Positions 29,114-64,000 of a stretch of DNA of 64,000 bases are shown here, piece after piece. Both the position numbers and the translations under genes were made by a program. Where the stretch lies: contig CAZSAT010000010.1 in assembly GCA_964604675.1 (NCBI GenBank), forward strand, positions 10,771-74,770, given 5' to 3'. The DNA comes from an uncultured Enterobacterales bacterium (GTDB lineage Bacteria; Myxococcota_A; UBA796; CAJQPC01). The notes beneath the pieces were generated by a model. It searched no databases. It was given only the letters and a program-made list of their open reading frames with translations, and was not told the DNA's origin. Positions within the stretch are counted from its first letter, which is position 1. Each line of letters starts with the position of its first letter.

Positions 29114-29122
29114 GACCCGCGC

Positions 29123-40662: not shown

Positions 40663-40664
40663 GA

Positions 40665-43138: not shown

Positions 43139-44626
43139 GTGCTGTGCAGCCTGCTGATGGTCGTCCACGCCTCCGATACCGGACTGGCGGGCCTCGACGC
43201 GCTCGACCTCGTGCGGGTGGACGACCCCGATCATCCCGACGCCATCGCGCGCTCGGCGACCGGTGCGGTGCTGTCCGCGCCGCCCGAGTCCGGATCGTGG
43301 TCGCGCGAGGTCGTGCCCGGCGTCGACGCCTACCAGGCCCACGAGGCGGTCACGGCGATCGCCGCAGAGCCCTGGCACGAGGCGGGGTTCACGGGGGCCG
43401 GGGTGTCGGTCGCCGTGTTCGATCTGCAGTGGTTCGGCAGCGACCTGGTGCCCGAGGAGCTCGGCGACGTGGCCACGTGGGACTGCTGGGCGCACGCGAG
43501 GTGCACGGTCGAGATGGACAACCTGCGGCCGCGCTTCGCCTACGAGAACGGGAACCACGGGGTGGCCTGCGCCGAGGTGGTTCGCGACCTCGCGCCCGAC
43601 GCGGATCTCCACCTGGTGAGGGTGAACGGGCGCACCACCTTCGAGAACGCCGCCGCCTGGGCGATCCGCGAGGGCATCGACGTGGTGTCGATGTCCCTGT
43701 CGTTCTACGCCGACAGCTTCCACGACGGCACGGGTCCGGTGAACGCCATCGCAGAGGATCTGGCCGACGCGGGCGTGCTCGTGACGGTGAGCGCCGGGAA
43801 CTCCGCGCGTGGACACTGGCAGGAGCGCTTCTCCGACGCCGATGCGGATGGCCTGCACGGCTTCCCGTGGGGATCCGAGTACCTGCCGATCTATCTGGAG
43901 GCCGGGGGCACCCGGAAGATCACCGTGATGTGGGACGAGTTCGGTCGCTGCGGCGAGACCGACCTCGACGTGCGGGTCTACCGTGGCGATGGCGCCCTGC
44001 TCGATCGCTCCGAGGGCGTGCAGGCGGGTGGGAGTGGGTGTGAGCCGGTCGAGCGCGTGAACCCCCAGGTGGACGACGACGGCTGGGTCTACCTCCAGAT
44101 CGAGCGGGTCGCCGGGGGTGGTGACGTCCGCTTCGACGTGCTGACCCGCGCCGGGGACGTGTACCAGTCCATGGCCGGTGGCTCCACGGCGGACCCGGCG
44201 AGCCACCCGGGGTCCTGGACTGTCGGGGCGGTCGCGGGCACGGGGTACCTGGACAACGGAGCGGAGTCGTTCTCGTCGTATGGGCCGACCAACGGCGGCG
44301 AGCCCAAGCCCGACATCGCGGCCCCCGACGGGGTGAGCGGCAGCGCCTATGGCGCACGGGGCTTCTACGGCACCTCGGCCTCGGCGCCGGTCGCGGCGGC
44401 CGCTGCCGCTCTGGTGCTCAGTCGGTACGAAGGGCTGACCCCGCGCGAGGCGGCGGACAAGCTCGAGAGCTGGGCGATGAGCGATGGCGCCGTGTTCGAG
44501 GGCCCTGACCAGGCCTACGGCGCGGGAAAGCTCCGCCTCCCCCCGCCCGACGCGAGCGGAGGCTGTGGCGCCGGTCTGTTCTACGCCGTGCTGCTGCTGC
44601 CCCTTGGCGTGCTGGGCCGCCGATGA
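43139..44626 (+). CDS. S8 (subtilisin-like) serine peptidase with a MYXO-CTERM-type C-terminal sorting tail
   Basis: Catalytic residues sit in VSVAVFDLQW (Asp), NGNHGVACAEV (His) and YGTSASAPVAAAAAAL (Ser). The C-terminus SGGCGAGLFYAVLLLPLGVLGRR has a GC, a hydrophobic helix and an Arg tail, like the MYXO-CTERM signal. Confidence 0.8.
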   Translation: MLCSLLMVVHASDTGLAGLDALDLVRVDDPDHPDAIARSATGAVLSAPPESGSWSREVVPGVDAYQAHEAVTAIAAEPWHEAGFTGAGVSVAVFDLQWFGSDLVPEELGDVATWDCWAHARCTVEMDNLRPRFAYENGNHGVACAEVVRDLAPDADLHLVRVNGRTTFENAAAWAIREGIDVVSMSLSFYADSFHDGTGPVNAIAEDLADAGVLVTVSAGNSARGHWQERFSDADADGLHGFPWGSEYLPIYLEAGGTRKITVMWDEFGRCGETDLDVRVYRGDGALLDRSEGVQAGGSGCEPVERVNPQVDDDGWVYLQIERVAGGGDVRFDVLTRAGDVYQSMAGGSTADPASHPGSWTVGAVAGTGYLDNGAESFSSYGPTNGGEPKPDIAAPDGVSGSAYGARGFYGTSASAPVAAAAAALVLSRYEGLTPREAADKLESWAMSDGAVFEGPDQAYGAGKLRLPPPDASGGCGAGLFYAVLLLPLGVLGRR

Positions 44627-44663
44627 TCGAGCTTCGCGGTACGCTGGGCGCTGTGGAGGTCCG

Positions 44664-48032: not shown

Positions 48033-48083
48033 GGCAAGGACTTTTCTTACCGGTACGGGCAAGACTGCCCCGGAGCGATGCTC

Positions 48084-50927
48084 ATGAACCCCATCCTGCT
48101 GCTGTTGGCCGCCTGCTCCCCCCAGGACGTCACGCTGACCGACGCGAGCTACCACACCTGGCTCGCCGCGAGCACCTCCGGCACCATCGCGCAGCACGAG
48201 TACGCCGACAAGGCGGACTCGAGCGAGTGGTTCACCGATGATGCGGACATCCAGTACATCGACTGCTTCAGCAACCCGGATGGCTGCACCGACTTCGACC
48301 CCAGCTACCAGTACTGGCTCGCCGAGGACGACTACTACGTCGTGCAGAACGAGGTCACCTCCTGGCGGTCCGAGGCGATCATGACCTCGGAGGGCGACTT
48401 CCAGATCACCGTGCACCACGAGCTCGACAGCTCGGTCGGTGATGCGGGCGAGGACTTCCGCTTCGCCTTCGTGATCGACCCGAACTTCCAGCCCACGGTC
48501 TGCATCCAGGATGGCCAGACCTGCTACACCGGGCAGGACGACGACGGCGATGGCCTGGCCGACTACGACGATCCCGATTGCCTCGTCGGCGGCTGGGAGA
48601 TCGGCTTCGACAGCAACGAGTGCAACGACGGCATCGACAACGACGGTGACGGCGCCGTGGACCTCGACGACGGCGACTGCGATCACGCCTTCGACGAGAC
48701 CGAGCTCTCGCCCTCCGCCTCCTGCACCGACGGGAGCGACGACGACGGCGACGGCTGGACCGACTCCGACGACCCGGACTGCCTGGTCGACGGTGGCGAG
48801 GAGGACGCCACCTACTGGGGCAAGGCCACGCCGGCCGCCTGCAACGACGGCCTCGACAACGACGGCGACGGCGCGATCGACGCCGACGACGCCGAGTGCG
48901 CCGACGCCGTGGACAACGCGGAGGACGGTCGCTCGGGCCGCAACGTCTGCAGCGACGGCCTCGACAACGACGGCGATGGCTGGACCGACACCGACGACGG
49001 CGACTGCGCGGTCTGGGGTGACGAGGTCGGCGCCACGTACTGGGCCTGCAACGACTTCACCGACAACGACGGCGACGGCGATGCCGACGTCGACGATGCG
49101 GGCTGCGCCACCTCGCTCGACCCGAACGAGGAGGACTACGCGGTCTCCACGGCGGTCGACACCGGCAGCACCGACACCGGCGGCGGCGACGCCTTCGCCT
49201 GCGCCGACGGCGTGGACAACGACGGCGATGGCTGGGTCGACGCCGACGACGCCGACTGCTTCTACGGCACCGACGAGGACGGCAGCCTCGACGCGAACTT
49301 CGCCTGCTCCGACGGCCTGGACAACGACGCGGTCGACACCTCGGGCGGCGACGGCAGCATCGACTCGGAGGACAACGGCTGCCAATACGGCTGGGACAAC
49401 TCCGAGGACACGGTGCCCACCGGCGGTGGCACCTGCTCCGACAAGCTCGACGACGACGGCGACGGCTGGACGGACTGGGACGATCCGGACTGCACGATGT
49501 ACGGCACCGAGGTCGGCACCACTGGCTTCGTCTGCAACGACGGGATCGACAACGACGGCGACGGCGACGTGGACGCCGACGATGCCGACTGCATCGGCGC
49601 GATGCGCTCCGCCGAGGACCTCGGTGACGTGGACTGCTCCGACGGCTCCGACAACGACGGCGACGGCTGGACCGACGGCGAGGATCCCGACTGCATCCTC
49701 GGCGCCAGCGAGGACTCGTCCTTCGACACCGACTGTGCCAACGCCAAGAACGCCGACTTCGACGAGTGCATCTGGGGCCTGGACGACGTGGCGGCCAGCA
49801 CCAGCTCCTGCTCCAACGGCGAAGACGACGACGGCGACGGCTGGATCGACTCCTCCGACGCCGACTGCGGCAACGCCGCGGTGCTCTACGAGCGCGGCTT
49901 CTCCACCGGTGACTGCGCCGACGGCCTCGACAACGACGGCGACGGTGCCACCGATGCTGACGACGACGGCTGCTTCTCGGCCACCGACGAGTGGGAAGAG
50001 GACTTCGACGAGTGCGGCGACGGCGAAGACAACGATGGCGACGGCTGGACCGACGGTGACGATCCGAACTGCGCTGCCGACACCATCTACGAGGGGACCG
50101 GCTCCGACGCCGCGAACGCCTTCTACCAGTGCAACGACGGCACCGACAACGACGGCGACGGCGCGGCCGACGCCGACGATGCCGACTGCGAGTCCGCCTG
50201 GGACAACGTGGAGGAGGAGCTCGTCGGGGGTGACCCGGTCGCCACGGAGCTGGACTACGGCGTGGTCATCGACCAATGGTCCAGCGACGAAGAGGGCCAC
50301 AGGATCTGGTACCTGAACGCGGGCTCCTACCAGCTCAACCCGGAGAACCAGGACGACTACTGGGTGCTCCCCGAGGAGTGGCTGGCCGGCTACGCGCATG
50401 CCAAGTTCTCCGCGGAGGAGTTCGACGTCGTGCCCACGCAGTACGGCTACGACTCCAACGGTGACGGCGCCTGGGACGAGCTGTTCTACGTGGATGTCGA
50501 CGCCGACGCGCCGAACCCGGACGCCTACGCGGCCAAGGTGAACGAGATCACGGAGGACGCGGCGGTCTGGGCCGCCGATCTCGAGACCTACGGCAAGATG
50601 AACAAGCCCTTCGAGATGAAGATCGAGGACAACCAGTGGCGTCCCATCGACCTGAGCCAGGCCGGCTTCGATCGCTGGATCGAGCTCAACACCTCCTGGG
50701 TCCGCATCAGCGAGGACTCCAACATCGAGGTCGGTGGCACCGTGAAGGGCGACTACCAGATCTTCCTGGCGGGCCGGGAGTCGGACTCCCAGGTGGTGGT
50801 GCGCGGCTCGTTCGAGGTGCCCGAGGTCGGCTGGGACCGCTGGGGCTACTCCATCCTCGAGGATGTGAAGCAGGCTGAGAACAACACCATCACGTGCGAT
50901 CTGCCCAGTGAGGGTGGCGACGAGTAG
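48084..50927 (+). CDS. second giant acidic lipoprotein (about 947 aa) with TSP3-like Asp/Cys repeats and a C-terminal non-repeat domain
   Basis: A lipobox (MNPILLLLAACSP). A 140-aa N-terminal domain precedes about 35 repeats of C-x-D-G-x-D-[ND]-D-G-D-G-W-x-D-x-D-D-P-D-C alternating with C-N-D-G-x-D-N-D-G-D-G-x-x-D-x-D-D-x-x-C. A C-terminal Trp/Tyr-rich domain of about 240 aa follows. It is a paralogue of the gene at 29123. The ATG at 48084 is preferred over 48078 because of Shine-Dalgarno spacing. Confidence 0.8.
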   Translation: MNPILLLLAACSPQDVTLTDASYHTWLAASTSGTIAQHEYADKADSSEWFTDDADIQYIDCFSNPDGCTDFDPSYQYWLAEDDYYVVQNEVTSWRSEAIMTSEGDFQITVHHELDSSVGDAGEDFRFAFVIDPNFQPTVCIQDGQTCYTGQDDDGDGLADYDDPDCLVGGWEIGFDSNECNDGIDNDGDGAVDLDDGDCDHAFDETELSPSASCTDGSDDDGDGWTDSDDPDCLVDGGEEDATYWGKATPAACNDGLDNDGDGAIDADDAECADAVDNAEDGRSGRNVCSDGLDNDGDGWTDTDDGDCAVWGDEVGATYWACNDFTDNDGDGDADVDDAGCATSLDPNEEDYAVSTAVDTGSTDTGGGDAFACADGVDNDGDGWVDADDADCFYGTDEDGSLDANFACSDGLDNDAVDTSGGDGSIDSEDNGCQYGWDNSEDTVPTGGGTCSDKLDDDGDGWTDWDDPDCTMYGTEVGTTGFVCNDGIDNDGDGDVDADDADCIGAMRSAEDLGDVDCSDGSDNDGDGWTDGEDPDCILGASEDSSFDTDCANAKNADFDECIWGLDDVAASTSSCSNGEDDDGDGWIDSSDADCGNAAVLYERGFSTGDCADGLDNDGDGATDADDDGCFSATDEWEEDFDECGDGEDNDGDGWTDGDDPNCAADTIYEGTGSDAANAFYQCNDGTDNDGDGAADADDADCESAWDNVEEELVGGDPVATELDYGVVIDQWSSDEEGHRIWYLNAGSYQLNPENQDDYWVLPEEWLAGYAHAKFSAEEFDVVPTQYGYDSNGDGAWDELFYVDVDADAPNPDAYAAKVNEITEDAAVWAADLETYGKMNKPFEMKIEDNQWRPIDLSQAGFDRWIELNTSWVRISEDSNIEVGGTVKGDYQIFLAGRESDSQVVVRGSFEVPEVGWDRWGYSILEDVKQAENNTITCDLPSEGGDE
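48520..50200 (+). repeat. in-frame tandem DNA repeat array (second copy of the Asp/Cys repeat family)
   Basis: The same gacaacgacggcgacggc / gacgacgacggcgatggctgg units as at 29.6-33.4 kb. This yields the long open antisense frame 48027..51086 (minus). Confidence 0.75.
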
Positions 50928-51980: not shown

Positions 51981-53723
51981 TCAGTCGGTGACGTAGAGGT
52001 CGTCGAAGGCCGCGCTGCCCGGGTCTTTCGCGGCGTCGAACACGGCCAGGGCCGGGTAGCCACGGCCCACGTCGACGTCCACGGTGGTGGTGAAGGCGGT
52101 CACCCCCTCGACGCGGAAGGCGATGGTGCTGCCGCTGACCTCCATGCTCAGGCGGTTCGGCAGGTCGGTGCCCGGCATGAGGTAGGGCGCGAAGCTCGCG
52201 TCGGTGAGGGGGACGTAGACACCGGCTTCGATGCGGCCCGCGTTCCAGCGGACCTTCGTGTCCTCGGAGATGCCGAAGAAGTACCCATCCGTGAGGCCCT
52301 GGGTGTCGCGGCTGACGTAGAGACCGATGATCGAGCCGCCGTCGCCCGCGGTGCGCGTGACGTCGGCGTCGAAGCGCCACTCGCCGCTCAGGTAGTGGTC
52401 CTCGTAGACCAGGATGTCCCAGGCGTCGTCACCGTCGCCCACGTGCTCGATGTCGTCCGGTCCGTCCTGGAATCCGTTCTCGTCGGGCACCCAGCCGAAG
52501 CTGCCCGCGTCGAGGTCCATGATGCCCGGCAGGGCCTGGTCGCAGGGCAGGCTTCCCTCGTCGAAGAGCAGATCGCAGTCGTTGTCCACCCCATCGCAGG
52601 TCTCGGTGGCCCCCGGGTACACGGTGACCAGGGCGTCGTTGCAGTCGCTGTTGCAGTCCACCCCGTCCCCGTCGCGGTCGTCCACGTCGTCCAGGTCGCA
52701 GTTGCGGTCGACCCCGTCGCAGAACTCCGAGAGGCTCGCGTGGATCTGGGGGTCGAGGTCGTCGCAGTCGGCGCCTCCACAGGCGACGTCGTCGTCGCCG
52801 TCCCGGTCGATGTCGGCGTCGTCCACGGTGCCGTTGCAGTCGTTGTCGGCCCCGTCGCCGCAGATCTCGTCGAAGTTCACGTTGCTGGTGGGGTCGAGGT
52901 CGTCGCAGTCGGCCCCTCCGCACTCCGCGGCCACGGTGCCGTCTCCGTCGTTGTCCTGGAAGTCGGCGCGCCCGTCGCAGTTGTTGTCGACCCCGTCGTC
53001 GTTGCAGAAGTCGTCGGCGTCGGGGTGGATGGCGTCGTCGTCGTCGTCGCAGTCGTCACCGCCGCAGGACTCCGCCGTGAAGCCGTCGCCGTCGGCGTCC
53101 AGATCGCCCGTGTCGCCATCGCAGTCGTGGTCGAGCTCGTCGCACTGTTCCTCGGCATCCGGGTGCGTGGTGTCGTCGGCGTCGTCGCAGTCGCTCCCGC
53201 CGCAGGCGGCGGAGAGGTGGCCGTCGAAGTCGGCGTCGTCGCGATCGGTGCTGCCGTTGCAGTCGTTGTCGACGCCGTCGAAGCAGTTCTCGGTGGCCTC
53301 GGGCGAGATCAGGGGGTCCAGGTCATCGCAGTCCTCGCCCCCGCAGGCGATGGCTGCGTAGCCGTCGCCGTCATCGTCCACGTCGTCGACCTTGCCGTTG
53401 CAGTCGTCGTCGACGGCGTTGCAGATCTCGGTCGCGCTGGGGTTCACCGTGTCGTCGTCGTCGTTGCAGTCGCTCCCTCCGGGGCAGCCTGCGGCGTAGT
53501 GACCGTCTTCGTCCAGGTCGACGATCACCTCGTCAGCGATGCCGTTGCAGTCGTTGTCCACCCCGTCGCAGATCTCGAGCGCGTCGGGATGGATCGCGTC
53601 GTCGAGGTCGTTGCAGTCGCTGCCGACGGGACAACTCGCCGCCGAGGAGAAGCCATCGCCGTCGAGGTCGACGGCGCAGGGGTCGGTGCTGCACGCCAGC
53701 AAGAGGAGGGGGCCGAGGGGCAT
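51981..53723 (-). CDS. lipoprotein with about 9 MopE-like 'putative metal-binding motif' Cys/Asp repeats and a C-terminal lectin-like (ConA/LamG-like) domain
   Basis: A lipobox (MPLGPLLLLACSTDPC). Repeats of the form DCNDxDDxxxPxAxExCDGVDNDCNGxxDE match the MopE-type pattern (for example GSDCNDDDDTVNPSATEICNAVDDDCNGKVDD). The C-terminal 180 aa are non-repetitive and beta-rich. Confidence 0.75.
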   Translation of the reverse strand: MPLGPLLLLACSTDPCAVDLDGDGFSSAASCPVGSDCNDLDDAIHPDALEICDGVDNDCNGIADEVIVDLDEDGHYAAGCPGGSDCNDDDDTVNPSATEICNAVDDDCNGKVDDVDDDGDGYAAIACGGEDCDDLDPLISPEATENCFDGVDNDCNGSTDRDDADFDGHLSAACGGSDCDDADDTTHPDAEEQCDELDHDCDGDTGDLDADGDGFTAESCGGDDCDDDDDAIHPDADDFCNDDGVDNNCDGRADFQDNDGDGTVAAECGGADCDDLDPTSNVNFDEICGDGADNDCNGTVDDADIDRDGDDDVACGGADCDDLDPQIHASLSEFCDGVDRNCDLDDVDDRDGDGVDCNSDCNDALVTVYPGATETCDGVDNDCDLLFDEGSLPCDQALPGIMDLDAGSFGWVPDENGFQDGPDDIEHVGDGDDAWDILVYEDHYLSGEWRFDADVTRTAGDGGSIIGLYVSRDTQGLTDGYFFGISEDTKVRWNAGRIEAGVYVPLTDASFAPYLMPGTDLPNRLSMEVSGSTIAFRVEGVTAFTTTVDVDVGRGYPALAVFDAAKDPGSAAFDDLYVTD

Positions 53724-53745
53724 CGTCCCCGGATGTTACCTGTCC

Positions 53746-55353
53746 GTGATGGCGGTGACCCTCGACGGGCAGAACCTGACCCTGGAGCACGTGGTCGCGG
53801 TCGCACGCGGGGGCGAGGCGGTGGCCGTGGCGGCGGCGTCCTACGAGGAGATGCGGCGTTCGCGAGCCTGGGTGGAGGATCTGGCCGAGGGCCGGCGTGT
53901 CGGGCCCGGCGGTGAGCCGCTCGTGGTCTATGGCATCAACACGGGCTTCGGCTCGCTCGCGCGGGTGCACATCCCCTTCGAGCAGGTCCGTGAGCTGATG
54001 CGCAACCTCATCCGTTCCCACGCGGCGGGCATCGGTCCGTCGGTGGACGCGGACGCGGCGCGGGCGATGGTGCTCTTGCGGGCCAACGCGCTCACGCGCG
54101 GCGCGAGCGGTTGCCGCCCGGCGCTCGTCGACTTGCTCGTGGGCTTGTTGAACGCCGGCATCACGCCGGTCATCCCGTCCCGTGGGAGCTGCGGCAGCTC
54201 GGGGGATCTCGCGCCGCTGTCGCACCTGGGGCTCATCGTGAGCCACGCTGTCGACGACCCCGACGAGGAGACCGGCTCCGCCTGGGTCGACGGCGAGCTC
54301 GTGAGCGGCCGAGAGGCGCTCGCTCGCCGCGGGCTCGTGCCGCTCACCTTGGGGCCCAAGGAGGGCTTGGCGATCAACAACGGCGCCCAGCTCACGACCG
54401 CGATCGCGGCCCTGGCCGCCTACGACGCGGAGCGCCTGGTGCTGCTCGCCGAGGTCGCGGCCGCGATGAGCATCGAGGCCCTTCGGGGCGTGACCCGCGC
54501 GTTCCATCCCGCCGTGCACGCCTTGCGGCCCTATGCGGGGGCCCTGGCCTGTGCCGCGAACCTGCGCCGGCTGCTCGACGGCTCGGGGCTGACCGACACC
54601 GTGCCCGGGAAGGTGCAGGATGCCTATTCGCTGCGCTGCACCCCCACCGTGCTGGGGGCCGCGCGCGACACACTCGCCCACACGGGCAGCCAGATCCGGG
54701 TGGAGCTGAACGCGGTCACCGACAACCCGGTGATCTGCCTCGACGCCGACGAGGACGACGCCTTCTCGGCCGGCCTGTTCCACGGGGAGCCGGTGGGCAT
54801 CGCCGCCGACGTGATGAAGATCGCGGTGGCCGAGCTGGCGAGCCTCTCGGAGCGGCGCTTGTTCCGCCTCACCACCGGCAACCTGAGCGCGCGGCTCCCG
54901 GCCAGCCTGCGTCGCGACGATCGCCCGGGGGTCGGGCTCTTCGGTCTCCAGACCACGGCGGCGGCGCTCGTGAGCGAGAACAAGTCCCTCGCGTGGCCTG
55001 CGAGCGTGGATTCCCTGCCCACGTGCGAGGACCAGGAAGACCACGTGGCCATGTCCACCACCGCGGCTCGGCGGGCTGGCGAGGTGGTCGGGAATGCCCG
55101 CGCGGTCATCGCGATCGAGCTCCTCTGTGCCGCGCGGGCCCTGCGCTACCGCCTCGACGCGGAGCCTGGGGTGTCGCTGGGCCGTGGCACACGAGCTGCG
55201 CTGGACGTGCTCGAGTCGGGGTTGCGCGACGACGACGAGGCCGTGCCGTCGGAGCGGGTCACCGAGGTGTTGGCGCTGATGGGCGAGCACACGCTGATCG
55301 ATGCGGTCGAGGCGGCGGCTGGTCGACTCCTTCGGGTTGGAGAGTCGCCTTGA
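53746..55353 (+). CDS. aromatic amino acid ammonia-lyase / aminomutase family (HAL/PAL/TAL, MIO-enzyme family) protein; the MIO triad reads Ser-Ser-Gly
   Basis: The N-terminus (MAVTLDGQNLTLEHVVAVARG), YGINTGFGSLA (catalytic Tyr loop), RSHAAGIG and the MIO region GSCGSSGDLAPLSHLG (family consensus GSVGASGDLAPLAH). GTG at 53746 or ATG at 53749, only about 22 bp from the divergent gene start at 53723. Confidence 0.85.
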   Translation: MMAVTLDGQNLTLEHVVAVARGGEAVAVAAASYEEMRRSRAWVEDLAEGRRVGPGGEPLVVYGINTGFGSLARVHIPFEQVRELMRNLIRSHAAGIGPSVDADAARAMVLLRANALTRGASGCRPALVDLLVGLLNAGITPVIPSRGSCGSSGDLAPLSHLGLIVSHAVDDPDEETGSAWVDGELVSGREALARRGLVPLTLGPKEGLAINNGAQLTTAIAALAAYDAERLVLLAEVAAAMSIEALRGVTRAFHPAVHALRPYAGALACAANLRRLLDGSGLTDTVPGKVQDAYSLRCTPTVLGAARDTLAHTGSQIRVELNAVTDNPVICLDADEDDAFSAGLFHGEPVGIAADVMKIAVAELASLSERRLFRLTTGNLSARLPASLRRDDRPGVGLFGLQTTAAALVSENKSLAWPASVDSLPTCEDQEDHVAMSTTAARRAGEVVGNARAVIAIELLCAARALRYRLDAEPGVSLGRGTRAALDVLESGLRDDDEAVPSERVTEVLALMGEHTLIDAVEAAAGRLLRVGESP

Positions 55354-56807
55354 TCACGCTCGGCGAACGCCTCACCATCGCCCAGGTGGCGGCGGTGGCC
55401 GCCGGCGCCGAGGTGGTGCTCGGCGAGGATGCTCGGGCTCGCATGACCGCGAACCACGCCGACTTCGTCGCCATGGGCTCGCCGGACGTGCTGGAGATGA
55501 AGGAAGCGTGGCTCACCGGGCCGCGCGCCGGCGAAGCTTCGCCGTGGGAGCGGCTCGTCGCCTTCGTGAGGGGTCACTGCGCCGGCGTCGGCGCACCGCT
55601 CCCCGTGCCGGCCGTCCGGGCCATGCTAGCCTGTCGCGCGCAGGTCCTGGCCCACGGGCTGAGCGGTTGCCGTCCCGAAGCCGCTGAACAGCTCGTCGCC
55701 ATGCTGCAGGCCGGCGTGCACCCCGTGGTGCCCTCCCAGGGATCGGTCGGCGCGGCGGGGGATCTGGCTCCCCTGGCGCACGCCGCACGGGTGGCGTTCC
55801 GCCTGGGAGGACAGGCCGTGCGCGACGGACGGCTGCTCGACAGCGACGCCGCAATGGAAGGTCTGCCGGAGTTCCGCCCGGAGCCCAAGGAGGCCCTGTC
55901 GGTGATCAACGGAGCCACGCTGACCGTGGCGCTGGCCGCGCTCGCGTGCCACCAGGCCCGCGGGCTCCTGCGGACCGCCGAGGTGGGGCTGGCCATGTCG
56001 ATGGAGGTGGTCCGCGCCAACACCGGCATGGTGCGCTTCGAGGTGCTCCAGAGCCGCGGCCACGGCGGCGGCGTGCGGGTCGGACGCAGGCTGCGCGAGC
56101 TCCTGAGCGAGTCCACGCTCGCGTCGGTGGACCGCCGTCCCGACGCCTTCTCGATCCGCTGCGCGCCCGCGGTGCTGGGCAGTGCCTGGGATGCGCTGAG
56201 CCACATCGAGGAGGTGGTGGAACGCGAGCTCAACGGCGCGTGCGACAACCCGCTCGTCATCGCCCGCGAGCTGGTCGATGGGGGGAACTTCCACGGAGCT
56301 CCGGTCGCACTGGCCATGGACCACCTGAAGACCGCGCTCACCCAGGTCGCCAGCATCGCCGAGCGCCGGATCTTCCGCATGACCTACGGCGTGCTCACCG
56401 GCCTGCCGAGCTTCCTGGTGGAGAGCACGGGGCTGAACTCCGGCTTCATGCTGGCCCAGTACACGGCCGCGTCGCTCGTGAGCGAGTGCAAGGGCCTCTC
56501 GATGCCCGCGAGCGTGGATGCCATCCCCACCGGGCAGCACCACGAGGACCACGTGAGCATGGGGCCCATCGCGGCCCGCGGTGCCCTGCGCATCTGCGAC
56601 GCGCTGGCGGAGGTGCTCGCGATCGAGATCCTGGTGGCGGCTCAGGGGCTGGAGTTCCGCATGGAGGAGGCGCCGCTCGCGCCGCGTGTCGAGGCCTTGC
56701 GTGCGCGGGTGCGCGAGGTCGTGCCGCGCTGGCGTGAGGACCGGGTGCTGCACCTCGATCAGCAGGCGGTGGCCGCAGGCGTGCGGGCCGGCCGCTACGA
56801 GGACTGA
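55350..56807 (+). CDS. HAL/PAL-family paralogue, apparently catalytically dead (MIO Ser to Ala, Tyr-loop lost)
   Basis: TTG at 55350 overlaps the upstream TGA (cTTGAtc). MITLGERLTIAQVAAVAAGAEVV aligns to the family N-terminus. The MIO region reads SQGSVGAAGDLAPLAH (Ala-Ala-Gly). The Tyr loop is replaced by WLTGPRAGEA. RGHCAGVG is retained. Confidence 0.75.
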   Translation: MITLGERLTIAQVAAVAAGAEVVLGEDARARMTANHADFVAMGSPDVLEMKEAWLTGPRAGEASPWERLVAFVRGHCAGVGAPLPVPAVRAMLACRAQVLAHGLSGCRPEAAEQLVAMLQAGVHPVVPSQGSVGAAGDLAPLAHAARVAFRLGGQAVRDGRLLDSDAAMEGLPEFRPEPKEALSVINGATLTVALAALACHQARGLLRTAEVGLAMSMEVVRANTGMVRFEVLQSRGHGGGVRVGRRLRELLSESTLASVDRRPDAFSIRCAPAVLGSAWDALSHIEEVVERELNGACDNPLVIARELVDGGNFHGAPVALAMDHLKTALTQVASIAERRIFRMTYGVLTGLPSFLVESTGLNSGFMLAQYTAASLVSECKGLSMPASVDAIPTGQHHEDHVSMGPIAARGALRICDALAEVLAIEILVAAQGLEFRMEEAPLAPRVEALRARVREVVPRWREDRVLHLDQQAVAAGVRAGRYED

Positions 56808-56812: not shown

Positions 56813-57361
56813 TCAGCTCGTGCGGCGGAGTGCCGACGTGAGGTCACGCACCCGGGCCTTCAGGGCATCCCGCTCGGCGGTGACCATGGCGATGTGCGCG
56901 CGGAGGTCCTGGTCGCCCGTGCCGTTCCGGGTGGTGGCCAGGGTCTCCTCGGCCTTGCGGGCGCGGCTCTCGGCGTTGGCCCGAGCGTCCTCGGTGGTCT
57001 GGAGGACCTTCTTGAGCTCGGCGAGCTTGCCGCCAACCTTCTCCATGCGGTCGCGGAAGTCCCGGTTGGCGCGGCCCTGCTTGGAGATGACCCGGTGCAG
57101 GTGGCGGAGGCTCTCCTCGGGGTCGTCGATGCCGTCCTCGCTCGGGATCAGCTCGTTGGTCAGGGTGACCAGCTGCTCGCAGATCGCGGTCTGTCGCTCG
57201 AGCATCTGATCGCGGACCTGGGCCTCGTCCTGCCAGGAGTTCAGGGTCTCGCGCAGACGATCCGCCTCTTGCCGAAGCAGGTTCGACTGGTACCAAGCAA
57301 CGCCCGAAGTCAGCAGGATTCCTATGCTGACACCGAGCACAACCCAGGAAAGAGGCGTCAT
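56813..57361 (-). CDS. membrane-anchored coiled-coil protein, hypothetical
   Basis: MTPLSWVVLGVSIGILLTSGVAWY (N-terminal TM), then heptad-like charged sequence (RQEADRLRETLNSWQDEAQVRDQMLERQ...). The track ORF 56813..58096 over-extends. Confidence 0.5.
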   Translation of the reverse strand: MTPLSWVVLGVSIGILLTSGVAWYQSNLLRQEADRLRETLNSWQDEAQVRDQMLERQTAICEQLVTLTNELIPSEDGIDDPEESLRHLHRVISKQGRANRDFRDRMEKVGGKLAELKKVLQTTEDARANAESRARKAEETLATTRNGTGDQDLRAHIAMVTAERDALKARVRDLTSALRRTS

Positions 57362-57572: not shown

Positions 57573-60500
57573 ATGCCGTCCTTCACCCTCCTCGTCCGCT
57601 TGCCTGCAGAGCGTGCTGCGCTCTGCGCGGTGGTCACGGCTGCCGGTGGCACGCCCGTGATCGACCTCACCGCCGGGGCGACGGTGCCCGAGGTGCCGGA
57701 AGGCGCCTGGATCCGAGTGCGCGCCGGCCAGCCGGCGCCCGGCACGGGCCCGGTGGTGTTGGTGGGTGGTCGCAAGCCCATCGTGGGCCGCGCCTGCTGG
57801 TTGGAGACCGTGCAGGCGGGCACGACGCCGGAGGGCTTCGAGGGCGTGATCCTCCGCGGTCGCGAGGCCGGCGGTGCCGCGGGGACCGCCGACGGGCTGT
57901 CCCTGCTCGCCGACCACCACGGGCCCGCCATCCTCGACGCGGGCGTCGGCCCGGCCACCACGGCGTCCGCGGCGGCCCTGGGTGCGCGGGGTGTGGTGCT
58001 GTTCGAGCAGGTGCTGGCGTTCGTCGAGCTGGGCCTCCCGGCCGCGCTGCGCGCGCGCCTCGCCAAGGCGGCCGACACCTCGACGCGCGTCGTCAAGGGC
58101 TACCGCCTGTGGGCCTCGCCGCTCGCGCCCGTCGTGCGCAAGCTGGCGGGCGGCGCCGATCCCGATAGCCTCGAGGCCGGGTGGTTCTCGGGCGACCCCG
58201 CGCTGGTGGCGTGGCCGGTCGGCCAGGGGGTCACGCTCAGCGGTGAGCTTGCGCGTCGCCACGAGACCCTCGCGGACTGCCTCCGCGCGTTCCGAGCGGC
58301 TGCGGAGAACTGGTCGGTGCGCGTGGGCGATGCACGCGCCTGGGACGACGTGGATGCACCGCGGGCGCGCACCGCCACGGCGCTGCGCGGTCGCAACGGC
58401 CGGAGCCGTGTCGCGGAGCCTTCGGGTGCCGTGGGCAGCGCGGTGCTCTGGCAGGAGGCGGTGTGGGAGGGCCAGCCGGTGGCGGGCACCCCGCTGATCG
58501 CGGCCATGGCCACGGGCTGTCCGGTGGCGGCGCCCGCCGCGGAGCTGGTGCGTGCCCGCGCCGAGGCCGGCATGCCGGAGGCGGCGCCGCCCGCGCCCAC
58601 ACCCGCCGCCGCGGCGGTGGCCGTCGCCGTGGAGCGCGCCGAGGAGCTGGTCGCGATCGTGGGCCTCGGCTGCCGCCTGCCGGGGGCGAACTCGGTCGAC
58701 GAGTACTGGGACAACGTGCTGGCCGGGCGGAACCTCATCCGCGAGGTGCCCGCGGACCGTTGGGACGCCAGCCTGTACTGGGACAGCGATCGGAACACGC
58801 CGGACAAGACCTACACACGCATCGGTGGCTTCATCACCGACTTCGCCTTCGAGCCGCGGGCGTTCCGCATCCCGCCCAAGGTCGCGCGGGTCGTGGACCC
58901 GGTCCAACAGCTGGCCCTCGCGGCCGTGCACGACGCGCTGCTCGACGCGGGGCTGGGCCCCGACGCCAGCGTCGACCGGAGCCGCATCGCGGTCATCCTC
59001 GGCAACTCGATGGGTGGGGAGATGAAGGACTCCTACGCGCTTCGGGTGCACTTCCCGGCCGTGCGCAAGGCGCTCGGCGCGATCGAGGGCTTCGCGGAGC
59101 TGCCGGCCGCTCAGCAGGCGGCCATCCTCGACACCCTCGAGGCCAAGGTGAAGGCGGATCTGCCGCCGATCACCGAGGACTCGATGCCCGGCGAGCTGTC
59201 CAACGTGATCGCTGGACGGGTGGCCAACGCCTTCGATCTGGGCGGCCCGAACTTCACGACCGATGCGGCGTGCGCCAGCTCCATGGCGGCCCTCCAGTCG
59301 GCCGTGAAGGGCCTCCAGGACCACGACTACGACTACGCGGTCACCGGCGGTGTGGATCGCTCGATGGACCCCGCCACCTACACCAAGTTCTGCAAGATCG
59401 GCGCGCTGTCGCCCGATCATTCGGCACCCTTCGACGCGTCGGCGAACGGCTTCGTGATGGGCGAGGGCGCCGGCATCCTGGTGCTGAAGCGCCTGTCGGA
59501 CGCCGAGGCCGACGGCGACCGCATCTACGCGGTGATCCGCGGCATCGGGGCCAGCTCCGACGGCAAGGGCAAGGGCATCACCGCGCCGAACATCGTGGGC
59601 CAGAAGCGCGCCCTGCGTCGTGCCTACGCCGACGCCGGACTGGACCCGGTCGAGGTCGACCTCGTGGAGTGTCACGGCACCTCCACGGTCGTGGGCGACA
59701 AGGTCGAGGTGGAGGCGCTCAGCGAGGTCGTGGGCGCCGGTCGGCGCGGTGACCGTGGCCCGATCCGCATCGGCAGCGTGAAGTCCCAGATCGGCCACCT
59801 GAAGAGCGCCGCGGGCGCGGCCGCGACCATCAAGATGGCGATGGCCCTGTACACCCGCACCCTCCCGCCGACCATCAACTTCGAGAAGTCGCGCCCCGAC
59901 GTGCCCTTCGACCAGGTCCCCCTCGCCGTGCAGGACACCCGTCAGCCGTGGGTGGCCGATGGCTGGCAGCGTGTGGCCGGCGTGAGCGCGTTCGGCTTCG
60001 GTGGCACGAACTTCCACGTGGTGCTCGCCGAGCACGTCGCTGCCCCCGAGGTGGCTGTGCGCGCCATGCCGGTGCGCGCGGAGGTCGTGGAGCGTCCGCT
60101 GCCCGACGGCATCTGGGCCGTGTCGGCGGCCACCGAGCAGGAGCTCTCGGAGCGCCTCGCGGCGGTGGAGCGTGGCGAGGCCACCCCCTGGGAACCGGCG
60201 CGTCGCTTCCGGCTCGCCGCGGCGGCCGACACGGTCGAGGAGCAGCGTGCCCAGGTCGCGAAGGTGCGGAAGTCGATCGCCAAGAACCGTGGGCACGAGC
60301 TCCTGCGCATGCGCGGCGTGCACCTCGAGGACGAACCCTGCGACGGCCAGCTGGCCTACGTCTTCACGGGCCAGGGAAGCCAGTACATCGGCATGGGTCT
60401 CGACCTCGCCGCGCACTACCCCGTGGTGGCGGCCACCTTCGCGGAGGCCGACCGGGTGATGTCCCAGGAGCTCGGGCGTCCGCTCAGCGACTACATCGCC

Positions 60501-63500
60501 GGTCAGGTGCACGACGACGCCGACGTGTCCTTCGAGGCGCTCCGCGCGACCGAGATCAGTCAGCCCGCGACCCTCACGGTCGACGTCGCCATCCTCCGGC
60601 TGCTCGCCGCGCACGGGGTGATGCCCGACATGGTCGCCGGGCACAGCCTCGGTGAGTACGGCGCTGCGGTAGCCTCCGGCATGATGGACTTCGCCTCGGC
60701 GCTGATGGCGGTGAGCGCCCGCGGCCGCGAGATGGCCAACGTCAAGCTCGACGACTTCGGCAAGATGGCCGGCATCGCCGCAGGCGTCGACGTCGTGCAG
60801 GAGGTGCTCGCGGAGGTCCCCGGCTACGTCGTGGCCGCCAACAAGAACTGCCCCACGCAGACCGTGATCGCCGGAGAGTCCGACGCGGTCGAGGCCGCGA
60901 GCGAGGCCTTCCGCGGGCGGGACATCACGGTCTACCCGTTGCCGGTCTCCCACGCGTTCCACAGCCGCATCGTGGCCCCGGCCAGCGAGCCCCTCCGCCG
61001 GGTCCTGGAGCGGCTGGAGCTGAAGGCGCCGGTCCGTCGGATCACCACCAACGTCACCGCCGACTGGTACCCCACCGGCCCGGACGCCCGCGAGTGGGCC
61101 TTGGACAACCTCGCCGCGCAGGTGGCGAGCCCGGTCGAATGGATCGCCCAGGTGGAGCGCATGTATGCGTCGGGCGCGCGGGTGTTCGTGGAGTGCGGCC
61201 CGAAGCGGGCGCTGACCGGCTTCAACGTGGCCATCCTCAAGCGCCGGCCTCACCGCGCGCTCTACACCAACAACCCGAAGACGGGCGGGGTGCGCTCGTT
61301 CCGTGACAGCCTCGCCGGGCTCCTCGCGCTCGGCTTCCCCGTGAAGGCCCAGCCGGCCACGTCGGTGCCCGACCTCTTCACGATCCCCGAGGCGCGCTTC
61401 GCCACGAGTGAGCAGCTGGTGACCCGGGACACGCCCACCGCCGCGGATCCCGAGGTCGCCCAGGCCCTGATCCAGATGGTGAGCGTGCGCACCGGACTCC
61501 CCGCCGACGAGATCGACCTCGACTGGGAGCTCGAGGCCGACCTCGGCGTCGACACGGTCCGGCAGGCCGAGATGGTGGCCGAGGCGCGGAAGCGCTTCCG
61601 GCTGGCGCGCGAGGCGGGCTTCCTGCTCTCCGACCACCGCACCACGCGGCAGCTGGTCGACTACTTCGCCAGCCGGCTCGGCCGCATGAAGGCCGTGTAC
61701 GACCGCAGCCAGCCGGCCGTCGCGCAGCAACCTCGAGGGGTGGCGGAGCTCCACGCCGAGCAACCGCTCGAGGTCAACACGCCGGTGCTCGCCGGAGCTG
61801 CAGTCAGCGGCTTCCTCGAGTCCGCGGCCCGCAGCGGCCTCGCGGGGCTCGACCCCGAGGCGTTCGCGAGCGCTCTGTTGCCGTCGGTGCAGGGCCTCCT
61901 GTCGGCGTCCTGGGAGGCCTTCCGATCCGCCGAGCGCCCGCCGGCCATCCAGCCGACGGCTGCGCCCACGGCCACGGTCGTCACGACGGCCGCCGCGGAG
62001 CCGGTTCGTGTCGTGTGCACGGGGGTCTCGATGGGCCTTCCCGGCGGGGAAGCGGTCTTCGCCGACGACAACGTGGAGGCGATCCTGCGCGGCGACAACC
62101 GCATCGGGAAGGTCCCCGCCGCCATCCAGGACCGCCTGCTGGACAAGGGCCTGGTCCGCCTGGTGAAGGACGAGGCCGGACAGGGCTCCTTCCTCCCGGT
62201 CAGCGAGCGCGACCAGGTCATCCAGCTCGCCGGCCGCGCCGAGCACTTCGATCTGGTGGCCGACTACGGGGTGGCGGCGAGCTACGCGCGTGCCCTGGAC
62301 CGCACGACGCAGCTGGCCTTCGCGGCAGGCATCGAGGCGCTGCGCGACGCGGGCGTGCCGTTGGTGCGCACCTTCAAGACCACGACCACCGGGAAGCAGG
62401 TCCCGCTGGGCTGGGCGCTCCCCGAGTCCTGGCGTGCGGGCACCGGCATCGTGTTCGCGTCGGCGTTCCCCGGCTACGACTACTTCGCCCGCCACCAAAG
62501 GGAGGATGGGAAGCTCGACGAGGGTCGCTTCGACCGCCGCTTCCTCTTCCAGATCCTGAGCATGGGCCACTCGCAGTTCGCCCAGTTCATCGGCGCCCAG
62601 GGGCCGAACACCCAGGTCAACGCCGCGTGTGCGTCGACCACGCAGGCGATCTCGGTGGCCGAGGACTGGCTGCGCCTGGGCCGCGCCGAGCGCGTGATCG
62701 TGGTCGGTGCCGACGACGTCACGAGCGATCAGCTGCTCGAGTGGATCGGCGCGGGCTTCCTCGCCGCGGGCGCGGCCACCACCGAGGCCGACGTCACGAA
62801 GGCGGCGCTGCCCTTCGACCGCCGCCGTCACGGCATGATCATCGGCATGGGCGCGGTCGGGCTCGTGCTCGAGCGTGGCGCGGACGCGGAAGCGCGCGGG
62901 GTCACGCCCATCGCGGAGCTGATCTGCTCCCGGGTGGCGAACTCGGCGTTCCACGGCACGCGGCTGGACGTCGGCCACATCGCCGGCGAGTTCCGCGCGC
63001 TCATCGGCACGGCCGCCGAGCGCCTGGGCACCACGCCCGAAGCGATGGCGTCGCGCACCATCTTCATGTCCCACGAGACCTACACCCCGGCTCGGGGTGG
63101 CTCGGCGGGCGCGGAGATCGCGGCCCTGCGCGCGGCCTTCGGCGAGGGGGCCGACGAGGTCGTGGTCGCCAACACCAAGGGCTTCACGGGGCACGCCATG
63201 GGCGCGGGCATCGAGGACGCCGTGGTGCTCAAGGCGCTGCAGCACCAGACCGCTCCGCCGATCCCGAACCTGAAGGAGCCGGACCCGGAGCTCGGGAACC
63301 TGCGCCTGTCGCCGGGTGGAGCCTTCGAGCTGGACTACGCCGTGCGCCTCGCAGCGGGCTTCGGTTCCCAGCTCGCGCTGACGGTGTGGAAGGCGATCGG
63401 CAAGGCCGACGACCGCGTGGACGCGCCGCGGCACGCCGCGTGGCTGCGCGAGGTCACCGGCTGGGCCGGCGTGGAGACCTTCGTGCAGGACCGCGCCCTG

Positions 63501-64000
63501 CGCATGCGGGAGGCGGAGGTGGTCGAGGCGCCGGTGGTGGCGGTCCCCGCGGCCGCCGCGGCCGCCGTCGCCGCGCCCGCCGCGCCCGGGAGCGAGGTGC
63601 TCGACGCCCTGCTCGACGTCATCGGCCAGCACACCGGCTACGGGCGCGAAGACCTGGAGCTCGACTACGAGCTCGAGGCGGACCTGGGCATCGACACGGT
63701 GAAGCAGGCGGAGATCTTCGCCGAGGTGCGGGACCGCTTCGGGGTGGCCCGCGACGACGGCTTCCAGCTCGCCGACTACCCGACCATCCGCGCGCTCGCG
63801 GCCTGGCTCACCGAGCAGACGGGTGGCGCGCCGGACGTCGCGGCCCTGGCCCCGGCCCCCGAAACGCCCGCCGCGGCCGCCCCGTCGGCGCTGTCGACAC
63901 CCGAGGCCTCGGACGACCAGGTGCTCGAGGTGCTGCTCGGCGTGATCGGCGAGCACACGGGCTACGACCGGGAGGACCTCGACCTCGACTACGAGCTCGA
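57573..64000 (+). CDS. type I polyketide-synthase-like megasynthase, 5'-partial view (continues past the window end). Layout: unknown N-terminal domain, KS, malonyl-type AT, carrier-like domain, KS2, and at least 2 carrier-like domains
   Basis: Frame 0 from the ATG at 57573 is open to the window end. The ORF track omits it because no stop falls inside the window. KS1 has the Cys-His-His triad in DAACASSMAALQS, ECHGTST and GHLKSAAGAA. The AT motifs are GQGSQ, GHSLGEYGA and HAFHS (malonyl-type). KS2 has AACASTTQAI and TKGFTGHAMGAG. Three carrier-like segments (D(L/Y)ELEADLG(V/I)DTV(R/K)QAE) at about 61.5, 63.7 and 63.95 kb all have Thr (acg) at the expected Ser position. Confidence 0.8.
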   Translation, partial: MPSFTLLVRLPAERAALCAVVTAAGGTPVIDLTAGATVPEVPEGAWIRVRAGQPAPGTGPVVLVGGRKPIVGRACWLETVQAGTTPEGFEGVILRGREAGGAAGTADGLSLLADHHGPAILDAGVGPATTASAAALGARGVVLFEQVLAFVELGLPAALRARLAKAADTSTRVVKGYRLWASPLAPVVRKLAGGADPDSLEAGWFSGDPALVAWPVGQGVTLSGELARRHETLADCLRAFRAAAENWSVRVGDARAWDDVDAPRARTATALRGRNGRSRVAEPSGAVGSAVLWQEAVWEGQPVAGTPLIAAMATGCPVAAPAAELVRARAEAGMPEAAPPAPTPAAAAVAVAVERAEELVAIVGLGCRLPGANSVDEYWDNVLAGRNLIREVPADRWDASLYWDSDRNTPDKTYTRIGGFITDFAFEPRAFRIPPKVARVVDPVQQLALAAVHDALLDAGLGPDASVDRSRIAVILGNSMGGEMKDSYALRVHFPAVRKALGAIEGFAELPAAQQAAILDTLEAKVKADLPPITEDSMPGELSNVIAGRVANAFDLGGPNFTTDAACASSMAALQSAVKGLQDHDYDYAVTGGVDRSMDPATYTKFCKIGALSPDHSAPFDASANGFVMGEGAGILVLKRLSDAEADGDRIYAVIRGIGASSDGKGKGITAPNIVGQKRALRRAYADAGLDPVEVDLVECHGTSTVVGDKVEVEALSEVVGAGRRGDRGPIRIGSVKSQIGHLKSAAGAAATIKMAMALYTRTLPPTINFEKSRPDVPFDQVPLAVQDTRQPWVADGWQRVAGVSAFGFGGTNFHVVLAEHVAAPEVAVRAMPVRAEVVERPLPDGIWAVSAATEQELSERLAAVERGEATPWEPARRFRLAAAADTVEEQRAQVAKVRKSIAKNRGHELLRMRGVHLEDEPCDGQLAYVFTGQGSQYIGMGLDLAAHYPVVAATFAEADRVMSQELGRPLSDYIAGQVHDDADVSFEALRATEISQPATLTVDVAILRLLAAHGVMPDMVAGHSLGEYGAAVASGMMDFASALMAVSARGREMANVKLDDFGKMAGIAAGVDVVQEVLAEVPGYVVAANKNCPTQTVIAGESDAVEAASEAFRGRDITVYPLPVSHAFHSRIVAPASEPLRRVLERLELKAPVRRITTNVTADWYPTGPDAREWALDNLAAQVASPVEWIAQVERMYASGARVFVECGPKRALTGFNVAILKRRPHRALYTNNPKTGGVRSFRDSLAGLLALGFPVKAQPATSVPDLFTIPEARFATSEQLVTRDTPTAADPEVAQALIQMVSVRTGLPADEIDLDWELEADLGVDTVRQAEMVAEARKRFRLAREAGFLLSDHRTTRQLVDYFASRLGRMKAVYDRSQPAVAQQPRGVAELHAEQPLEVNTPVLAGAAVSGFLESAARSGLAGLDPEAFASALLPSVQGLLSASWEAFRSAERPPAIQPTAAPTATVVTTAAAEPVRVVCTGVSMGLPGGEAVFADDNVEAILRGDNRIGKVPAAIQDRLLDKGLVRLVKDEAGQGSFLPVSERDQVIQLAGRAEHFDLVADYGVAASYARALDRTTQLAFAAGIEALRDAGVPLVRTFKTTTTGKQVPLGWALPESWRAGTGIVFASAFPGYDYFARHQREDGKLDEGRFDRRFLFQILSMGHSQFAQFIGAQGPNTQVNAACASTTQAISVAEDWLRLGRAERVIVVGADDVTSDQLLEWIGAGFLAAGAATTEADVTKAALPFDRRRHGMIIGMGAVGLVLERGADAEARGVTPIAELICSRVANSAFHGTRLDVGHIAGEFRALIGTAAERLGTTPEAMASRTIFMSHETYTPARGGSAGAEIAALRAAFGEGADEVVVANTKGFTGHAMGAGIEDAVVLKALQHQTAPPIPNLKEPDPELGNLRLSPGGAFELDYAVRLAAGFGSQLALTVWKAIGKADDRVDAPRHAAWLREVTGWAGVETFVQDRALRMREAEVVEAPVVAVPAAAAAAVAAPAAPGSEVLDALLDVIGQHTGYGREDLELDYELEADLGIDTVKQAEIFAEVRDRFGVARDDGFQLADYPTIRALAAWLTEQTGGAPDVAALAPAPETPAAAAPSALSTPEASDDQVLEVLLGVIGEHTGYDREDLDLDYEL

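Follow-up and report, generated by a model that had tools for sequence, protein, structure and literature searches.

The window analysed here is a stretch of 64,000 nt of contig CAZSAT010000010.1 (71% G+C), and the feature under study is the reading frame that occupies its last part, on the forward strand at 57573 to 64000. From an ATG at 57573 this frame runs through 2,142 codons without a stop and is still open at the window end, with a third-position G+C content (GC3) of 0.94. Judged by its sequence, this open reading frame (ORF) covers two thirds, from the N-terminus on, of an iterative type I fatty-acid/polyketide megasynthase that would be about 3,200 aa long, similar to polyunsaturated fatty acid (PUFA) synthases and of the kind described in 2011 as "Type R". 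The layout is that of an already known but uncharacterised family; the feature of this family that has gone unreported is that its carrier domains bear Thr in place of the Ser that holds the phosphopantetheine arm and come with a dedicated phosphopantetheinyl transferase (PPTase).

The domains in the window are, in order, a degenerate NMO-like domain, a ketosynthase (KS1), a malonyl-type acyltransferase (AT), a carrier (CP0), a second ketosynthase (KS2), and tandem carriers (CP1 and the start of CP2). Pfam placed KS on residues 359 to 771 of the window protein, AT on residues 929 to 1211, and PP-binding on two stretches, with a weaker thiolase-like match at residues 1676 to 1719 that corresponds to KS2. 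KS1 (58647 to 59885, +) is canonical (ketoacyl-synt E 6e-91, Ketoacyl-synt_C E 5e-47), with the Cys in DAACASS (59262 to 59282) and the two His in CHGTST and IGHLKS, while the AT (60357 to 61205, +; Acyl_transf_1 E 6e-42, NCBIfam FabD 206.7 bits) shows GQGSQ at 60369, GHSLG at 60639, and HAFH at 60951. KS2 (62007 to 63401, +) matched FabF entries of the PDB with E values down to 5e-27 and has its Cys/His/His intact, in NAACAST at 62619, SHETYT at 63069, and TGHAMG at 63186. An earlier note on this DNA had described a KS with Cys/His/His, a malonyl AT, and a second full KS without an AT of its own, and all of the motifs it quoted are present.

Canonical ketosynthases read HGTGT where the KS2 family reads SHETYT, a signature that is invariant around the first catalytic His. 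A chain-length factor has lost the active-site Cys, which is normally Gln. Because the KS2 Cys and both His (motifs NAACAS, SHETYT, and TGH) were invariant in 77 of 77 family sequences, the label of chain-length factor given to this domain in 2011 was rejected, and KS2 is, on its residues, an active-looking ketosynthase.

The N-terminal region of about 350 aa had been called of unclear family, and it indeed gave no Pfam NMO (PF03060) match at E<=1; profile comparison, however, identified it as a degenerate NMO-like (pseudo-enoyl-reductase) domain (57585 to 58301, +). Its homology is confined to the degenerate NMO-like first half of relatives that bear an enoyl reductase (ER) (hhalign probability 98.3, E 1.8e-14), and it is 38% identical to the N-terminus of the full-length relative L009. 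The E-x-GGH motif of the FMN site is absent, the domain reading REAGGAAG there (within RGREAGGAAG) and missing the catalytic His, and the second, canonical NMO half (QGPMA...ECGGHIG) is missing throughout the window's clade. With no NMO match, no catalytic His, and no canonical half, an active ER was ruled out for this domain, and since the canonical half is missing the window synthase has no ER in cis.

In carrier biochemistry the phosphopantetheine arm is taken to sit on an invariant Ser, and a domain that lacks this Ser is treated as inactive by annotation tools and engineers alike. CP0, a clade-specific carrier that follows the AT (61431 to 61700, +), contains the motif DLGVDTVRQAEM (61539 to 61565), in which the Thr codon is ACG at 61554 to 61556. 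CP1 (63573 to 63842, +; Pfam PP-binding at residues 2012 to 2079) contains DLGIDTVKQAEIF (63681 to 63707), again with an ACG Thr codon, at 63696 to 63698. CP2 starts at 63909 (+) and is cut at 64000 (...DLDLDYEL), upstream of its motif, and the window shows just two Thr. The claim that three carriers here show Thr (acg) therefore held for two of them, the third not being visible at the window end, although on the parent contig CP2 continues as EADLGIDTVKQAEIFAEVRDRFG and the third Thr is present. Counting this extension, the gene has at least three carriers, and instead of the Ser of a D-S-[LIV] phosphopantetheine site we found Thr in CP0, CP1, and CP2 alike.

These segments had been proposed to be carriers, with the possibility that they were linker or docking domains or that another Ser took the site, and each line of comparison upheld the proposal. 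The PP-binding match (PF00550), in its two stretches of the window protein, scored 47.6 bits against a cut-off of 20.8. When CP1, the second carrier, was searched against the PDB with phmmer, its Thr aligned exactly on the phosphopantetheine Ser of the tandem acyl carrier proteins (ACPs) of PigH (DLGVDSI and DLGIDSV), of PksA (DMGIDSL), and of the Streptomyces coelicolor ACP (DLDVDSL). A profile built from 23 family carriers aligned over its full length and in the same register with ACPs of Aquifex, Thermotoga, Plasmodium, and others. The AlphaFold2 model of CP1 (mean pLDDT 87.2) has helices at residues 5 to 21, 42 to 56, and 72 to 82, and helix II opens with Thr42, in the place that the Ser takes in canonical ACPs. 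Among the top 50 matches listed by Foldseek for this model against the PDB, all were ACPs, the best being the Thermotoga ACP 6lvu (TM about 0.76/0.86, rmsd 1.6 A). In alignment and in model, then, the segments are true ACP-fold carrier domains with Thr on the position of the attachment Ser. The closest solved carriers by sequence, those of PigH (PDB 5y08; E 3.4e-20 with the family profile), share TGY...LE.DLG[IV]D with the family, but their attachment residue is Ser and their pathway is that of prodigiosin.

The threonine extends far beyond this gene. A scan of one genome per species returned 282 relatives, and 80 loci were fetched; these came from Myxococcota and "Deltaproteobacteria" metagenome-assembled genomes (MAGs), many Acidobacteriota, Actinomycetota, Calditrichia, and Elusimicrobia, and some from MAGs labelled Asgard (Promethearchaeati, Heimdallarchaeota), Bathyarchaeia, and Thermoplasmatota. 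Across the 80 loci the attachment residue was Thr in 254 of 256 carriers and Ser in 2, and in 120 database homologues it was Thr in all 298 carriers. Both Ser exceptions are the CP0 of one locus each (L004 and L008), where the motif reads DSIKQAE, and CP0 has Thr elsewhere; a hydroxyl residue was always kept, Ser being the sole alternative seen. Codons at the site were ACC (135), ACG (90), ACT (23), ACA (14), and AGC (2), in loci that span 31 to 74% GC, and as Ser lies one base from Thr yet is nearly never seen, Thr is actively preferred over Ser. The carrier consensus around it is nearly invariant (EKTGYP.DML.LDLDLEADLG[IV]DTVKQAE.FA.IR..Y.IPRD...KLRDYPTL). On these comparisons, the Thr marks the family as a whole and is kept by purifying selection.

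Such conservation also bears on the possibility that the Thr codons reflect sequencing or assembly error, or a decaying pseudogene. The contig does end inside tandem repeats, which is a typical assembly problem. The parent contig (L081; ENA ERZ27249630 k141_13511) and two JGI contigs (L082 and L083) were located by exact-protein look-up of the adjoining 182-aa gene; the parent contig is 100% identical to the window and adds 69 nt beyond its end. In these three independent metagenome assemblies the sequence is identical, and gene callers set the synthase start at the same ATG, with a cut product of 2,165 aa. Given also the 2,142 open codons, the GC3, and the family-wide Thr counts, which refute it, error or decay has a negligible probability as the source of Thr, and the claim that the replacement is conserved rather than accidental was borne out.

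All three assemblies break at the identical point within the tandem carrier repeats, so that extending the contig gave 69 nt and the third Thr but not the remainder of the gene, and the downstream parts are deduced from relatives. A metagenome scan with the C-terminus of L001 did not find the missing half of the window's gene, only two relatives with about 75% nucleotide identity (L084 and L085). These, the closest sequences, have CP0 (DTVR), KS2, and three DTVK carriers, and their C-terminal region aligns with the ketoreductase (KR), dehydratase (DH), and PPTase part of L001.

The window's closest clade consists of L001, L002, L005 to L010, L012, and L013, in all of which the PPTase is fused to the synthase; in the window's organism it would lie beyond the contig end. 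L009 (3,240 aa) has the order N-terminal domain, KS, AT, CP, KS2, three carriers, KR, polyketide synthase (PKS)-type DH, and Sfp-type PPTase (4PPT_N + ACPS). Lujinxingia vulgaris (L040, 4,123 aa) and an Asgard-labelled relative (L020, 3,604 aa) have an extra NMO/PfaD-type ER at the N-terminus, whereas acidobacterial proteins (such as L025, 2,849 aa) read KS-AT-KS2-CPn-KR-DH and have their PPTase encoded by a gene of its own. A KR is present in every full-length relative examined.

The best NCBIfam match was PfaA (TIGR02813), at 690.8 bits for the window, 863.5 for full-length L009, and 961.6 for L025; its cut-off is 1010.1, and no NCBIfam model reached cut-off for the window or for these full-length relatives. 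All 441 database homologues bear generic names only. PfaA resembles the family in its KS, malonyl acyltransferase (MAT), tandem ACPs, KR, and DH, with very similar carriers (LGIDSIKRVEIL vs LGIDTVKQAEIF), but has Ser carriers, has no second KS in the same chain, and depends on PfaB, PfaC, and PfaD.

The family was first noted in 2011 as Type R, a PfaA homolog with the order KS-MAT-chain-length factor (CLF)-ACP(3-6)-KR followed by a PPTase gene, listed in Koribacter, Solibacter, Elusimicrobium, and Roseiflexus with the product uncharacterised, and in Koribacter with an acetyl-CoA carboxylase (ACC) gene between synthase and PPTase (Shulse & Allen 2011, PLoS One 6:e20146; PMC3098273). That paper mentions threonine 0 times, our literature search found no follow-up on Type R, and a 2026 survey of PUFA-like hybrids mentions Ser ACPs only. 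The window gene agrees with Type R in its order of KS, MAT, second KS, and tandem ACPs, and its relatives agree in the full layout with KR and downstream PPTase, in the matching taxa, and in the Koribacter ACC insertion, the order synthase-ACC-PPTase being found in Korobacter L049 exactly as described for Koribacter. DTVKQAE carriers occur in the Korobacter, Bryobacterales, Elusimicrobia, and Roseiflexaceae relatives. The present family departs from the description in that the paper calls the second KS a CLF, where we find an invariant Cys/His/His, and in that the window's clade adds a post-AT carrier, a degenerate NMO-like N-terminus, a fused PPTase, and a GNAT gene behind the synthase. From layout, taxa, and ACC gene order, together with the carrier comparisons above, we consider it almost certain that the window gene belongs to the Type R secondary lipid synthase family and that its Thr-bearing segments are carriers. 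The KS-AT-CP-KS-CP-CP order that had been taken for an unusual, one-off layout is accordingly the conserved layout of a large family, to which this clade adds a carrier behind the AT.

Searched with the carrier profile, the whole library gave 8,277 representative proteins at E<=1e-3, of which 1,662 reached E<=1e-30, the latter count including Ser-type PfaA-like proteins. The best 145 new representatives comprised 110 Thr-type and 35 Ser-type proteins, those with Ser having classic PfaA-like DSIKRVEIL carriers, and within each protein the carriers were uniformly Thr or uniformly Ser, bar three exceptions. One library representative, P0172 (3,234 aa), has the full KS-AT-KS2(SHETYT)-CPx5-KR-DH-PPTase order with a fused PPTase, but its five carriers are Ser-type (DLGIDSVKVAEIF). 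It is 41 to 44% identical to L009. Its carriers share 36.5% identity with Thr carriers and 29.6% with other Ser carriers, and so are somewhat nearer to the former. As an ortholog with Ser carriers, and thus a natural counterpart of the Thr family, P0172 indicates that Ser and Thr hold the same functional site in orthologous proteins.

An Sfp-type PPTase is fused to the synthase in 22 of the 80 loci and lies immediately downstream in 44, giving 66 of 80; of the 14 remaining loci, 13 lie on contigs that break off within the synthase, which leaves 66 of 67 untruncated loci with a PPTase. The family PPTases keep the GVDxE and WSxKEAxxK motifs. Residues aligned to Sfp H90, D107, E109, E127, W147, K150, E151, and K155, in a reference sequence taken to be that of Sfp, were conserved in 59 to 62 of 62. 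The closest PDB match to a family PPTase is the built-in PPT domain of fungal fatty acid synthase (FAS) (7bc4, 2was). A sensitive hmmsearch of all ORFs of at least 50 aa in 85 loci found no Ser-type ACP, either stand-alone or as a domain, besides the CP0 of L004 and L008, and the Thr carriers are, these two aside, the only carriers found in these clusters.

A built-in PPTase that activates the carrier of its own chain has parallels. Enediyne PKSs (PKSE; KS-AT-ACP-KR-DH-PPTase) and the fungal FAS alpha chain likewise end in a KR-DH-PPTase arrangement that self-activates their own carrier; both differ from the present family in having a single Ser-type ACP, no second KS, and no tandem Thr carriers.

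These observations led us to a statement on the whole family, namely that it consists of Type R synthases with true carriers whose Thr is phosphopantetheinylated by the cognate PPTase, which on sequence comparison we regard as probable. We lean, by a narrower measure, towards the stronger proposal that O-(4'-phosphopantetheinyl)-threonine is a natural, previously unrecognised modification, made by a co-evolved Sfp-type PPTase clade on the tandem carriers of a widespread family. Several points weigh against phosphopantetheinylation of the Thr. The one direct precedent is negative: the S36T variant of E. coli ACP, in the presence of that organism's own PPTase, is not 4'-phosphopantetheine-modifiable and cannot replace ACP (PMC3340395). 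Our literature search found no report of phosphopantetheine on Thr in any protein. Comparison of the PPTases of Thr-type loci with Sfp and with that of P0172 revealed no residue that explains a specificity for Thr; K112E relative to Sfp was considered and is not discriminating, as Ser-type P0172 has it too. None of KR, DH, PPTase, and GNAT is encoded in the window, and their presence in this organism is predicted from relatives. Finally, the acyl-CoA dehydrogenase and electron transfer flavoprotein (ETF) genes of the acidobacterial clusters leave some room for CoA-bound chemistry.

The S36T result can be read in two ways. Substitution, position, and fold are the same as in the family carriers, and on one reading the Thr domains would be unmodified pseudo-carriers, serving as scaffold or spacer, with the chain held on a Ser-type ACP encoded elsewhere in the genome and acting in trans, or on CoA. 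The acidobacterial clusters, with acyl-CoA dehydrogenase, EtfAB, and an Fe-S/CCG protein typical of work on CoA thioesters, would suit this, and the search for ACPs covered the loci and not whole genomes, so that a distant ACP is possible. A scaffold, however, needs no invariant hydroxyl kept through all four Thr codons, nor the near-invariant helix-II face DLG[IV]DTVKQAE, which is the partner-recognised surface of an ACP. The PPTase of nearly every untruncated locus would, moreover, be left with no substrate in its cluster, and the Ser-type ortholog P0172 marks the same position as a normal attachment site. We therefore consider unmodified pseudo-carriers unlikely. The earlier suggestion that the carriers may not be phosphopantetheinylated has, in the same way, become less likely, given a dedicated and intact PPTase in clusters with no other carriers. 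On the other reading, since S36T is not modified in E. coli, a Thr carrier is expected to need a specialised, private transferase, and the substitution that abolished function there is in this family the selected state in thousands of natural carriers.

A further alternative is that the Thr bears another prosthetic group or a direct O-acyl link in place of 4'-phosphopantetheine. Nothing in the data favours it directly; it draws on the lack of precedent for Thr-linked phosphopantetheine in the literature searched. The conserved partner is an Sfp-type PPTase with its CoA/Mg2+ residues intact, and the conserved neighbours include no CitX/MdcG-like or other transferase. From general ACP enzymology, a bare Thr side chain would be too short to reach the buried KS, KR, and DH sites, and an oxoester would be a poor substrate for return to the KS Cys. 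Such a tether appears very improbable.

If Thr-linked phosphopantetheine is correct, the AT, KS1, KS2, KR, DH, and carriers would form an iterative megasynthase with a private carrier/PPTase pair. The cognate PPTase, fused or adjacent, would move 4'-phosphopantetheine from CoA to the Thr hydroxyl, a task for which housekeeping AcpS-type enzymes would not serve. The AT would then load malonyl units onto the phosphopantetheine arms, and KS1 and KS2, with KR and DH, would extend the acyl chain iteratively on these Thr-borne arms; enoyl reduction, if any, would occur in trans in the window's clade, and the adjacent GNAT would probably release the chain. A plausible rationale for Thr is insulation from housekeeping AcpS and AcpH. 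Phosphothreonine is more resistant to beta-elimination than phosphoserine, and a plausible alternative is that the phosphodiester would likewise be more beta-elimination-resistant on Thr.

The family spans Acidobacteriota, Myxococcota, Actinomycetota, Chloroflexota, and Elusimicrobia as well as MAGs labelled Asgard, Bathyarchaeia, Thermoplasmatota, and Halobacteriales. Soil Acidobacteria and other hard-to-culture phyla have it in abundance, it is also found on archaeal-binned contigs, and no product has been assigned to it since it was first noted. Thr has been selected at the arm site throughout this natural family, which nearly always brings its own PPTase. Should the Thr be modified, this would be a new protein modification and would supply pathway engineering with an orthogonal carrier/PPTase pair ready for use; it would also explain why these clusters need a private PPTase and would make the pathway orthogonal to the housekeeping holo-ACP synthase and possibly to the ACP phosphodiesterase. 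The ER-bearing forms with adjacent ACC would then be self-contained type I fatty acid synthases, archaea included. With cultured hosts at hand (Koribacter, Solibacter, Roseiflexus, Elusimicrobium, Lujinxingia), a direct test is feasible.

Gene neighbourhoods repeatedly link the family to malonyl-CoA supply and lipid handling, as far as annotation of the loci goes. In Acidobacteriota and Actinomycetota the synthase lies in an operon of WS/DGAT, Fe-S/CCG protein (720 aa), EtfB, EtfA, acyl-CoA dehydrogenase (570 aa), synthase, single-chain eukaryote-like ACC (about 1,880 aa; 1,883 aa), PPTase, and alpha/beta hydrolase, found in L025, L034 (e.g., L034 2 to 23168), and about 30 other loci. Such a gene content suggests that enoyl reduction is linked to ETF and that the product is a storage lipid. 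In the archaeal-labelled loci, genes for biotin carboxylase, biotin carboxyl carrier protein, and carboxyltransferase stand beside an ER-fused synthase; the arrangement ER-KS-AT-KS2-CPn-KR-DH-PPTase with ACC genes was seen in L015, L017, L020, L023, L027, L048, and L062 and in the library representatives P0036, P0044, P0056, P0108, and P0117, on contigs that binning had assigned to Asgard, Heimdallarchaeota, Bathyarchaeia, Thermoplasmatota, and Halobacteriales. The gene order of L020 ("Asgard") and L027 ("Bathyarchaeia") is identical, so that their binning or taxonomy may need revision. If these contigs are truly archaeal, they would hold a complete type I FAS-like system in archaea.

In the window's clade, and in the family comparison only there, a GNAT acyltransferase of about 190 aa directly follows the synthase. 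It was found in 9 loci of the clade and in L084 and L085 (e.g., L009 16156 to 16743; L001 11054 to 11812; L084 8940 to 9512; L085 8400 to 8972), and from its position it is a candidate chain-release or N-acylating enzyme. The predicted domains fit an iterative synthase whose product would be a fatty-acyl or partly reduced chain, which N- or O-acyl transfer would release in this clade.

Upstream of the synthase in the window, on the same strand, lie two Lyase_aromatic (PF00221) genes for aromatic amino acid lyases/aminomutases of the type that carries a 4-methylideneimidazole-5-one (MIO) group, the first, MIO1, at 53539 to 55353 (+; E 1.5e-160) and the second, MIO2, at 55344 to 56807 (+; E 4.3e-128), whose ORFs overlap by 10 nt. 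MIO1 has an X-Ser-Gly triad (Ser-Ser-Gly in GSCGSSGDLAPLSH), and MIO2, although it matches the same family, reads Ala-Ala-Gly (GSVGAAGDLAPLAH); it is thus without the Ser that becomes the MIO methylidene, and about 70 N-terminal profile positions are absent from it. MIO2 may be a non-catalytic partner subunit. The tandem pair was correctly noticed earlier, and an opposite-strand gene (56813 to 57361, -) lies between it and the synthase. This gene encodes a 182-aa protein of no Pfam family with an N-terminal hydrophobic segment, probably transmembrane, followed by a charged helix-rich region, and its position is conserved on all three contigs of this organism.

The pair had been taken as a sign that an aryl or beta-amino acid supplied by these enzymes primes the synthase. 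The two genes lie directly upstream in the same orientation, the nearest relative, L001, also has an MIO gene just upstream, and the GNAT behind the synthase could couple the acyl chain to an amine. In the other 79 loci, however, no MIO neighbour occurs, so that a family-conserved association was ruled out, L001 alone having one. MIO2 lacks the MIO-forming Ser, the intervening gene separates the pair from the synthase, and the GNAT would point to use of an amino acid at release rather than at priming, if it is used at all. Pfam and the N-terminal analysis showed no adenylation, CoA-ligase, or loading domain in the window synthase, whose N-terminus is the degenerate NMO-like domain, and with no loading domain such priming is distinctly unlikely. 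The sign is a weak one, and for the sub-clade some link between the MIO genes and the synthase is faintly possible.

Farther upstream the window encodes proteins that look secreted and carry MopE-type Cu-binding repeats (8 copies) as well as FG-GAP repeats, together with an S8 subtilase, at 51981 to 53723 (-), 40344 to 42359 (+), and 44484 to 46967 (+); in the related contig L085, too, the synthase has a MopE/FG-GAP protein nearby (9831 to 11903). Two large ORFs, at 29114 to 33397 (+, 1,428 aa) and 48078 to 50927 (+, 949 aa), have coding-like GC3 but matched no Pfam family at E<=0.001. Genes for a SelB selenocysteine elongation factor and a molybdopterin oxidoreductase lie at 25888 to 27963 (+) and 2693 to 4639 (+), from which the organism probably uses selenocysteine, a trait unrelated to the synthase.

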